DNA of 14,073 nt from a virus (IMGVR_UViG_2859810971_000003); one strand, 5' to 3'. Counted from the stretch's first letter, positions 2,893 through 3,246 are shown. Made by a program: numbers and translations. Notes: generated by a model not told the origin, from the letters alone.

Positions 2893-3246
2893 CTACCCCA
2901 GATGAGTAATCCGAAGTTCATCCATACCACAGGTCCTGGCTATTCTGTTGTACTCCTGAACAAGAGCAAATAATTCTGAATTAGCAACCATGAACTCATC
3001 GCAAACCCTCTGTATAGCATCACTATTCAGAATAATAACGTCTCTTCCCGAAAGACGATCAGGAGTACAGAACAAAACTGTCAAACGGCTGAAGGCCTTT
3101 GCTCGTGCTGCATTGACTATATCAATACGCTGCCTAAGGATGAAACACCCCGACGCCTCATCAATATTCACTCTACCCACACCATATGAATGATAAATAC
3201 TTAATGCTGAAAAAACCATTAGACCGTATAACAAATACTCAATCAA
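2893..3246 (-). CDS. Hypothetical protein (108 to 117 aa) in the stx-equivalent cargo position; start uncertain (TTG at 3246 or ATG at 3219)
   Basis: Open frame in AT-rich DNA, same orientation as the late operon. Six of eight Arg codons are AGA/AGG and there are three ATA codons, matching the adjacent tRNAs. Hydrophobic N-terminus. No strong ribosome-binding site. Confidence 0.35.
   Translation of the reverse strand: MIEYLLYGLMVFSALSIYHSYGVGRVNIDEASGCFILRQRIDIVNAARAKAFSRLTVLFCTPDRLSGRDVIILNSDAIQRVCDEFMVANSELFALVQEYNRIARTCGMDELRITHLG

Follow-up and report, generated by a model that had tools for sequence, protein, structure and literature searches.

The open reading frame (ORF) at positions 2893-3246 on the minus strand of IMGVR_UViG_2859810971_000003, a 14,073-nucleotide stretch of viral DNA that we refer to throughout as the window, appears to be an overlooked cargo gene of the moron type. 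The DNA of the window represents the late-regulatory region of a lambdoid Escherichia coli prophage. In our preferred reading the gene would comprise 92 codons, from GTG 3171 to TAG 2893, belong to the PHROG 2873 family, and occupy a slot that is shared with the Shiga toxin (stx) genes, and its rare codons would follow from AT-rich composition rather than from tuning to the neighboring tRNAs. We assign this reading as a whole a probability of roughly 0.7. A first-pass annotation had described the ORF as cargo whose rare codons match two phage tRNAs encoded immediately upstream; the cargo gene is well supported by the comparisons reported here, and the match to the tRNAs is not.

Coding evidence for the ORF

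As first described, the ORF spans 117 codons from a TTG and contains an in-frame ATG at 3219. Homologous DNA was found in 1,314 of 5,426 complete E. coli genomes, with nearly all copies at least 95% identical, and two further E. coli lineages carry more divergent versions, one with 72% DNA identity to the window behind an AraC-like gene (loci L004/L006) and one with 76% identity behind a DNA methylase (L007/L010). In all three lineages the segment from GTG 3171 to the stop is exactly 92 codons long and free of indels. Differences between the lineages number 19-24, 18-23, and 40-44 at codon positions 1, 2, and 3, so that the third position varies about twice as much as the others, and the Nei-Gojobori ratio of nonsynonymous to synonymous substitution (dN/dS) is 0.26-0.27 in frame versus 0.8-1.25 in the other sense frames. 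The sense frame of this core is also the only one of six without internal stops. A gene on the opposite strand was considered, as antisense frame -1 mirrors the low ratio of nonsynonymous to synonymous polymorphism (pN/pS), but that frame has internal stops and the candidate was rejected. Because three lineages keep 92 codons without indels and the in-frame dN/dS is low, we count the gene as coding, and the first-pass claim of a genuine protein-coding cargo gene stands on the conservation of frame and length and a dN/dS of 0.26. Judged by sequence comparison, the ORF is thus a genuine but mis-delimited small gene. A literature search found nothing on this ORF.

Several observations weigh against our reading. 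In 38 of 40 genomes sampled from the window lineage, the matching region carries no RefSeq gene call, as made by the Prokaryotic Genome Annotation Pipeline (PGAP). The Shine-Dalgarno (SD) pairing of GTG 3171 is weak (-4.5 kcal/mol, compared with -5 to -7 kcal/mol in most relatives), the terminator that follows the gene elsewhere has been lost in the window lineage, and constraint on the core within the clade is moderate, with 10 nonsynonymous to 6 synonymous changes. With respect to the codons, the gene and the tRNAs are tightly linked in the window lineage (72 of 74 loci), and the share of AGA and AGG (together AGR) among arginine codons is highest in this tRNA-linked lineage, at 5/10 versus 2/9 and 2/8 in the other two.

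The missing gene calls, the weak SD, and the lost terminator would suit an alternative in which the ORF is a non-functional, decaying cassette remnant in defective prophages that has remained open by chance and through recent common ancestry. The surroundings also bear marks of decay, including a mutated start codon in the neighboring DUF3927 gene, an IS200 insertion upstream, and a tRNA with a U33A change, and in the first 11 sequences the core changes stood at 7 nonsynonymous to 2 synonymous. However, the 92-codon core is intact in 78/78 IMG/VR copies of the window lineage and in all 11 genome copies. Across 86 sequences, variation is lowest in the core (5.4%), higher in the 75-nt leader (8%), and highest in the upstream spacer (12.7%), while pN/pS within the clade is 0.49 in the core compared with 1.43 in the leader. 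Truncated or frameshifted protein variants, moreover, occur only as single-member clusters, whereas the intact forms make up clusters of 146-370 members. With these patterns in view, we regard decay as unlikely and retain the reading of a functional gene.

Translation start and leader

The first-pass annotation placed the start at TTG 3246 or ATG 3219 and noted that neither has a strong ribosome-binding site. The latter point was confirmed, as no usable SD is present at TTG 3246 (-0.9 kcal/mol) or ATG 3219 (-2.4 kcal/mol), but the choice between these two starts was not upheld. Among the three candidates, GTG 3171 has the best anti-SD pairing. Distant homologs of 91-99 amino acids (aa) all begin at the position aligned with GTG 3171, and PGAP/RefSeq models the 92-aa form as WP_001017777.1 in L007 (strain ETEC4079). 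The protein most likely starts at GTG 3171, judging from these alignments, and the leader at 3172-3246 probably belongs to the 5' end of the cassette and does not code for protein.

The leader itself behaves differently from the core. Leaders of the window and of L004/L006 are homologous (56/75 nt), yet they are separated by indels whose lengths are not divisible by three. The L006 leader is out of frame, the L007/L010 leader contains a stop codon, and L038 has a 1-nt deletion in the leader with the core intact. Within the clade, leader changes are 5 nonsynonymous to 1 synonymous, which corresponds to the pN/pS of 1.43 given above. A promoter-like TTGATT-17-TCTAAT arrangement inside the leader was also considered; it is not conserved in L004, and we set it aside as speculative.

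These data bear directly on the possibility that a longer form of 108 or 117 aa is made in the window lineage, whose hydrophobic N-terminus would be a signal or membrane anchor peculiar to that lineage. In 77/78 copies the extension is open, its 25 N-terminal residues are indeed hydrophobic in the window sequence, with a grand average of hydropathy (GRAVY) of 0.84, and the 108-aa form is the one adopted in PHROG 2873 and by most gene callers. On the other hand, neither of the upstream starts has an SD, the extension has a pN/pS of 1.43, it is broken by the indels, stop, and deletion described for the other lineages and L038, and it is missing from all distant homologs. We consider production of a long form very unlikely. 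A signal or membrane function of the hydrophobic N-terminus is not supported, as the segment lies upstream of the conserved start and is frameshifted, stopped, or absent in all relatives; by sequence comparison and composition, no hydrophobic N-terminal segment was found as part of the conserved protein, whose 92-aa core has a GRAVY of 0.13.

Rare codons and the neighboring tRNAs

Two tRNA genes lie directly upstream of the gene on the same strand, as had been reported: tRNA-Arg(UCU) at 3357-3433, which decodes AGA, and a tRNA with anticodon CAU at 3535-3610, which decodes AUA. The first of these stands upstream of the gene in 72 of the 74 IMG/VR loci of the window lineage. The first-pass count of six AGA or AGG codons in the ORF is correct (AGA with first bases at 3174, 3045, and 2946; AGG at 3135, 3009, and 2937), but the arginine total is 11 and not eight, as three CGT, one CGA, and one CGG are also present, giving an AGR share of 6/11. 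The three reported ATA codons (first bases 3120, 3015, and 2943) were confirmed and make up 3/11 of the isoleucine codons. Within the 92-codon core the corresponding values are 5/10 for AGR and 3/9 for ATA.

Whether these values are unusual depends on the reference. In 33 host core genes AGR accounts for 21/669 arginine codons (3.1%) and ATA for 30/678 isoleucine codons (4.4%), and against this background the gene is enriched in both (AGR, P = 4e-7 for 6/11 and 7e-6 for 5/10; ATA, P = 0.006-0.01). An AT-matched reference was assembled from 17 ORFs with GC below 0.46 from E. coli prophages and plasmids, in which AGR amounts to 59/172 (34%) and ATA to 81/224 (36%). Compared with these ORFs no enrichment was found for AGR (Fisher P = 0.15-0.25, with 0.25 for the core value of 5/10) or for ATA (3/9 against 32-36%, P = 0.6-0.7, with 0.69 against the 36% of these ORFs). 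Base composition alone would predict 42% AGR and 33% ATA. Prophage genes in general have 16-20% AGR and 20-24% ATA even at a GC of 0.47-0.57, and those below a GC of 0.47 have 27-44% AGR and 32-35% ATA. The same AT-matched test flags the ATA usage of stx2A (15/20, P = 2.5e-4), and it therefore has the power to find a real excess. The proposed match between the rare codons and the adjacent tRNAs thus fails by the comparison that the first-pass annotation had itself named as decisive, since there is no excess over ORFs of the same AT content.

The rare codons do not fall at conserved sites: the invariant arginines at residues 15, 23, 29, and 39 are encoded by CGN in all lineages, while all five AGR codons of the core are at variable sites where the sister lineages have Leu, Lys, Gln, Asn, Gly, Ser, or Glu. 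Within the clade, rare codons are polymorphic as AGG/AGT, AGG/AGA, and ATA/ATT. Nor does codon use across the family track the neighboring tRNAs in the Morganella, Serratia, and E. coli lineages compared. The Morganella homolog has no tRNA nearby and uses AGA at 3/6 and ATA at 4/8, and the Serratia homolog, which adjoins tRNA-Gly(UCC), uses GGA at 0/3. No tRNA was seen in the fetched sequence around L004/L006 and L007/L010 (at most about 4 kb on each side, and 1.7 kb and 2.7 kb in total for L004 and L010).

The tRNAs themselves also deserve attention. A UCU tRNA reads AGG less well than its primary codon, as in argU/argW decoding, and three of the six AGR codons in the ORF are AGG. The window copy of tRNA-Ile2 has an A at the universally conserved U33 (window position 3578; GACACATAAT versus GACTCATAAT), a position that is T in 12/12 other fetched tRNA-Ile2 copies and in 72/72 IMG/VR loci. 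On this comparison, U33A is probably a private, function-impairing mutation.

The model implied by the first-pass annotation is that translation of this rare-codon cargo is coupled to the adjacent phage tRNAs and is efficient only when they are expressed, as has been proposed for stx. In its favor, the gene has the strand and slot of stx2A behind the same tRNA genes, its AGR (5-6 of 10-11) and ATA (3 of 9-11) content is far above that of host core genes, and the linkage to the tRNAs and the peak of AGR share in the tRNA-linked lineage point the same way. However, the gene is not enriched over AT-matched ORFs or the composition null, its rare codons stand at non-conserved sites while the conserved arginines use CGN, and within the clade one AGG also occurs as AGT and one ATA as ATT. 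The AGG half of the AGR codons, tRNA-free homologs that are equally rich in rare codons, the fetched L004/L006 and L007/L010 sequences in which no tRNA was seen, and the altered tRNA-Ile2 of the window further argue against coupling, which we judge quite improbable. The AGR counts by lineage are small, and a weak tRNA effect may exist.

We conclude that the rare codons are what any AT-rich gene of a prophage would carry and show no special match to the adjacent tRNAs. The AGA, AGG, and ATA codons would then reflect an AT-rich foreign composition that is common to prophage cargo, and the adjacency of gene and tRNAs would result from a common insertion slot rather than from tuning. Genes for tRNAs 3' of Q are common in lambdoid phages and have been discussed as genome-wide supplements (PMC3636060). 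More plausibly, then, tRNA-Ile2 and tRNA-Arg(UCU) aid decoding across the whole set of prophage genes.

Organization of the locus

The features of the window that surround the gene are listed in the order in which they follow one another from Q, with the evidence for each in brackets.

4464..5285, minus strand: Q-type late antiterminator gene (RefSeq "antitermination protein" in homologous loci; ORF list).
4356..4458, minus strand: late promoter/terminator region (direct sequence reading, terminator scan).
4458-4453 and 4436-4431, minus strand: candidate pR', TTGATT and TAAATT with a 16-nt spacer (position and consensus only).
4383-4356, minus strand: tR' hairpin and T-run, with the hairpin at 4383-4364 (terminator scan).
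3653..4355 (approximate), minus strand: IS200C insertion with tnpA at 3716-4174 (RefSeq annotation of homologous loci).
4223-4346, minus strand: STnc490/art200 region inside IS200C (Rfam STnc490, 146 bits).
3535..3610, minus strand: tRNA-Ile2 type, anticodon CAU, ileZ-like, reading AUA after lysidine modification (ARAGORN).
3357..3433, minus strand: tRNA-Arg, anticodon UCU, argO-like, reading AGA (ARAGORN; Rfam tRNA, 68 bits).
3172..3246, minus strand: leader of 75 nt, 5' of the conserved core and probably non-coding.
2893..3171, minus strand: conserved coding core of 92 codons and a TAG stop, with the start most likely at GTG 3171.
2726..2812, minus strand: DUF3927 (TciB-like) small hydrophobic ORF, 28-aa form (Pfam PF13064, E = 2.4e-14; PHROG 1470).
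2473..2660, minus strand: STnc100 prophage small RNA (Rfam RF02076, 110 bits).
2112-2447, opposite strand to the ORF: iraM-like gene.

Several of these assignments rest on comparison with related loci. The uninterrupted phage mEp460_ev081 (L003) has its pR'/tR' arrangement likewise directly after Q, and alignment with it set the breakpoints of IS200C, which sits immediately 3' of tR' and before the tRNA genes. The insertion has brought two additional terminator-like hairpins into the late operon leader. In all homologous loci fetched, the CAU tRNA bears the RefSeq annotation tRNA-Ile, and tRNA-Arg(UCU) has identical copies in related prophages and a near-identical copy in the Stx2a phage L011, where one base differs in the acceptor stem. 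The 43-aa form of DUF3927 begins at a GTG that is GTT at position 2857 of the window, according to the alignment with L001, which leaves the 28-aa ATG form; RefSeq annotation in other genomes gives this form as WP_000114358.1. A frameshift in DUF3927 was considered and rejected, as the difference is this change of start codon. STnc100 is a known prophage small RNA related to PasD (bioRxiv 10.64898/2026.05.13.724894). Its intrinsic terminator at 2503-2482 is the first strong, GC-rich terminator-like site 3' of the tRNAs and the gene, and the terminator scan also returned a weak site within the ORF at 3057-3039. In the early region, RefSeq annotates a protein with a Kiwa KwaB-like anti-phage domain at 11401-12423 of L001 (strain C6, same prophage type); by locus offset only, this gene would lie at about 8100-9120 of the window.

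The position of the gene is shared widely. Its homologs, which are 91-99 aa long in prophages of Citrobacter, Salmonella, Serratia, and Morganella, lie between Q and the holin/lysozyme genes in these genera, as in E. coli, and the upstream neighbor varies by lineage between a tRNA cluster, an AraC-like gene, and a DNA methylase. The GC content of the gene is 44%, versus 49-54% in the flanking phage genes. An intrinsic terminator, formed by a stem of the GCTCGC-TACG-GCGAGC type and a T-run, is located 15-72 nt past the stop in L007, L010, L012, L018, L021, and L023, and this arrangement is conserved in five genera (E. coli, Citrobacter, Serratia, Morganella, and Salmonella). A consensus promoter scan returned five promoter-like sites where 3.5 were expected, one of them at 3291-3264 on the minus strand, upstream of the leader, and thus revealed no promoter above chance level in the window lineage.

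Three related arrangements were also seen. In the Serratia prophages L018-L020 (4492-4722) a different tRNA trio, consisting of a CAU tRNA, a tRNA with an irregular anticodon loop, and tRNA-Gly(UCC), stands between Q and the homolog; as this trio has the same position, the slot serves generally as a site for tRNAs. A TerB-like gene of 141 aa and then DUF3927 come after the gene in some lineages (L010 1499-2073; L012 5489-6063), an order that suggests a three-gene module, and of the TerB-like/DUF3927 pair the window lineage retains DUF3927 only. On plasmid contigs of enterotoxigenic E. coli (ETEC; L015-L017) a 91-aa family member, P0034, which occurs on many contigs, is located at 5001-5276 next to a K88-type fimbrial operon, and 0.6 kb upstream of it stands a tRNA-Thr(UGU)-like gene. 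From its surroundings, this copy appears to be a piece of phage DNA that a virulence plasmid has taken up.

Comparison with Stx2 phages and morons

The first-pass annotation also pointed to Stx phages, and in this respect it was accurate. In Stx2 phages, ileZ-type, argN, and argO tRNA genes lie directly upstream of stx2A, and stx2A uses ATA at 15/20 and AGR at 8/24. Compared with the Stx2a phage L011, the window has its cargo in the stx2AB slot, behind the tRNA cluster 3' of Q and before iraM and the lysis genes; the order is the same, and in L011 stx2A and stx2B replace the ORF, DUF3927, and STnc100. More generally, phages of the 933W/Sp5 type share with the window the succession of Q, sometimes a methylase, tRNA(CAU), tRNA-Arg, cargo, an iraM on the opposite strand, and lysis genes, and their tRNA-Ile2 and tRNA-Arg(UCU) genes are near-identical to those of the window. 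Both cargoes are AT-rich and downstream of pR'/tR', so that both would be expected to be Q-dependent late products, as is established for stx2. The resemblance ends with the cargo itself. The window protein has no sequence or fold relation to Stx, and its product would be a single small cytoplasmic helical protein, as predicted, rather than a secreted AB5 toxin. Whereas stx2A is a true outlier in ATA usage by the test described above, the window gene is not (3/9, P = 0.6), and the window has two tRNAs where Stx2 phages have three.

A moron, as the term was used by Juhala and Hendrix, is an additional transcription unit inserted among conserved genes of a phage, which often brings a promoter and terminator of its own and differs in base composition. 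The window gene is similar in its position between Q/pR' and the lysis cassette, its lower GC, its varying upstream neighbors, and the terminator found in five genera; it differs in that the window lineage lacks the post-gene terminator and that the scan showed no promoter above chance. From these comparative features we take the gene to be ordinary moron-type cargo of a lambdoid prophage.

The protein, its family, and its predicted fold

The product of the 92 codons would have a mass of 10.4 kDa, a pI of 5.7, and a GRAVY of 0.13, and is predicted to be soluble and acidic, without enzyme, membrane, or signal features. AlphaFold models a helical hairpin with a mean predicted local distance difference test (pLDDT) score of 88 and helices at residues 3-34 and 50-81. 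The search for remote homologs that the first-pass annotation had recommended was carried out and returned only uncharacterized relatives and generic hairpin folds, the latter including prefoldin beta, Rop, the CHMP4B hairpin, and designed bundles. Membership in PHROG 2873, a family of unknown function, is direct (E = 2.2e-69, residues 10-117 of the long form aligned to all 108 profile positions), and PHROG 4827 is weakly linked. The PHROG 2873 profile represents the 108-aa ATG form, unlike the 92-aa form favored here and unlike WP_001017777.1, the 92-aa ortholog of 63% identity called by PGAP; neither entry carries a function.

Scans of Pfam, NCBIfam, and PADLOC gave no match for the window protein, and a few distant members have weak matches to HEC-06/07 (E of about 8e-4). 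A similarity to GapR/UPF0335 in a profile search of PDB sequences (E = 0.07-0.26, over the first helix) was judged non-significant. The family is small in these searches: an exhaustive profile search of 1.84 billion representative proteins recovered only 20 relatives, and a second search recovered 40, all "hypothetical", from E. coli, Shigella, Citrobacter, Salmonella, Serratia, Morganella, and Xenorhabdus. Searching a phage collection with tblastn yielded the single record mEp460_ev081. A pattern-based scan of GTDB, with one genome per species, returned only E. coli and one short contig labeled as a Bacillota metagenome-assembled genome (MAG). This contig, L010 (JAEWMQ010000075.1, 2.7 kb), carries a DNA methylase, the gene, the TerB-like gene, DUF3927, and a holin, and is almost certainly E. 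coli-type prophage DNA that entered the Bacillota bin as a contaminant.

One regulatory role was weighed in particular, namely that the protein is an anti-activator of AraC-family regulators, similar to ANR/Aar, which binds and inhibits a partner regulator. In L004/L006 an AraC-like (HTH_18) gene precedes the gene at a distance of 22 nt, a homolog stands beside the K88 fimbrial operon on ETEC plasmids, and both ANRs and the window protein are small helical proteins on mobile elements of enteric bacteria. ANR proteins are described as all-helical, oligomerizing proteins of less than 10 kDa with three helices and the signature A10, E14, A22, W26, A29, W43, and R47 (PMC4983702). The window protein, by contrast, lacks the signature residues and any Trp, has 92 aa where ANRs have about 60-70, reaches 10.4 kDa, and is predicted to form two long helices instead of three. 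It has no Pfam or NCBIfam match, and most loci, including the window, have no AraC-like neighbor. Membership in the ANR family was rejected on these grounds, and an anti-activator role of this kind appears extremely improbable.

Possible role and implications

Our reading of the locus as moron-type cargo leads to a tentative account of its expression and role. The family occupies the interval from Q, often with a DNA methylase and/or tRNAs, to the holin-endolysin genes in at least five Enterobacterales genera. Because the gene is downstream of pR'/tR', antitermination by Q would be expected to bring about its transcription as part of the late operon, through tR' and IS200. The tRNAs, the gene, DUF3927, and STnc100 may form a single unit ending at 2503-2482, as there is no strong terminator-like site before this point and only the weak one at 3057-3039, and STnc100 may be the 3'-end product of that transcription unit. 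As the product is predicted to be a helical hairpin without enzyme, membrane, or signal features, its most likely mode of action would be the binding of another protein. A stronger proposal, which we put forward as speculative and rather unlikely, is that the 92-aa protein has a conserved and important function as the product of the gene that opens the late operon in lambdoid prophages of five or more enterobacterial genera, and that it has been overlooked for lack of RefSeq annotation in most of about 1,300 complete E. coli genomes. Under this proposal the protein might be, for instance, a lysis-timing, counter-defense, or lysogenic-conversion factor that acts by protein binding, and the gene may work with its TerB-like, DUF3927, and STnc100 neighbors as one module.

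For the annotation of prophages, these results imply that RefSeq lacks a genuine small gene in about one in four complete E. coli genomes, and that where the gene is called, its start is usually wrong. They also indicate that a match between rare codons and adjacent phage tRNAs is, taken alone, no evidence of coupling, since shares of about 30-40% for AGA/AGG and ATA are general among AT-rich genes of prophages. As the slot between Q and the lysis genes carries Shiga toxin and other conversion genes, a conserved gene in this position is a candidate factor for lysogenic conversion or late function.

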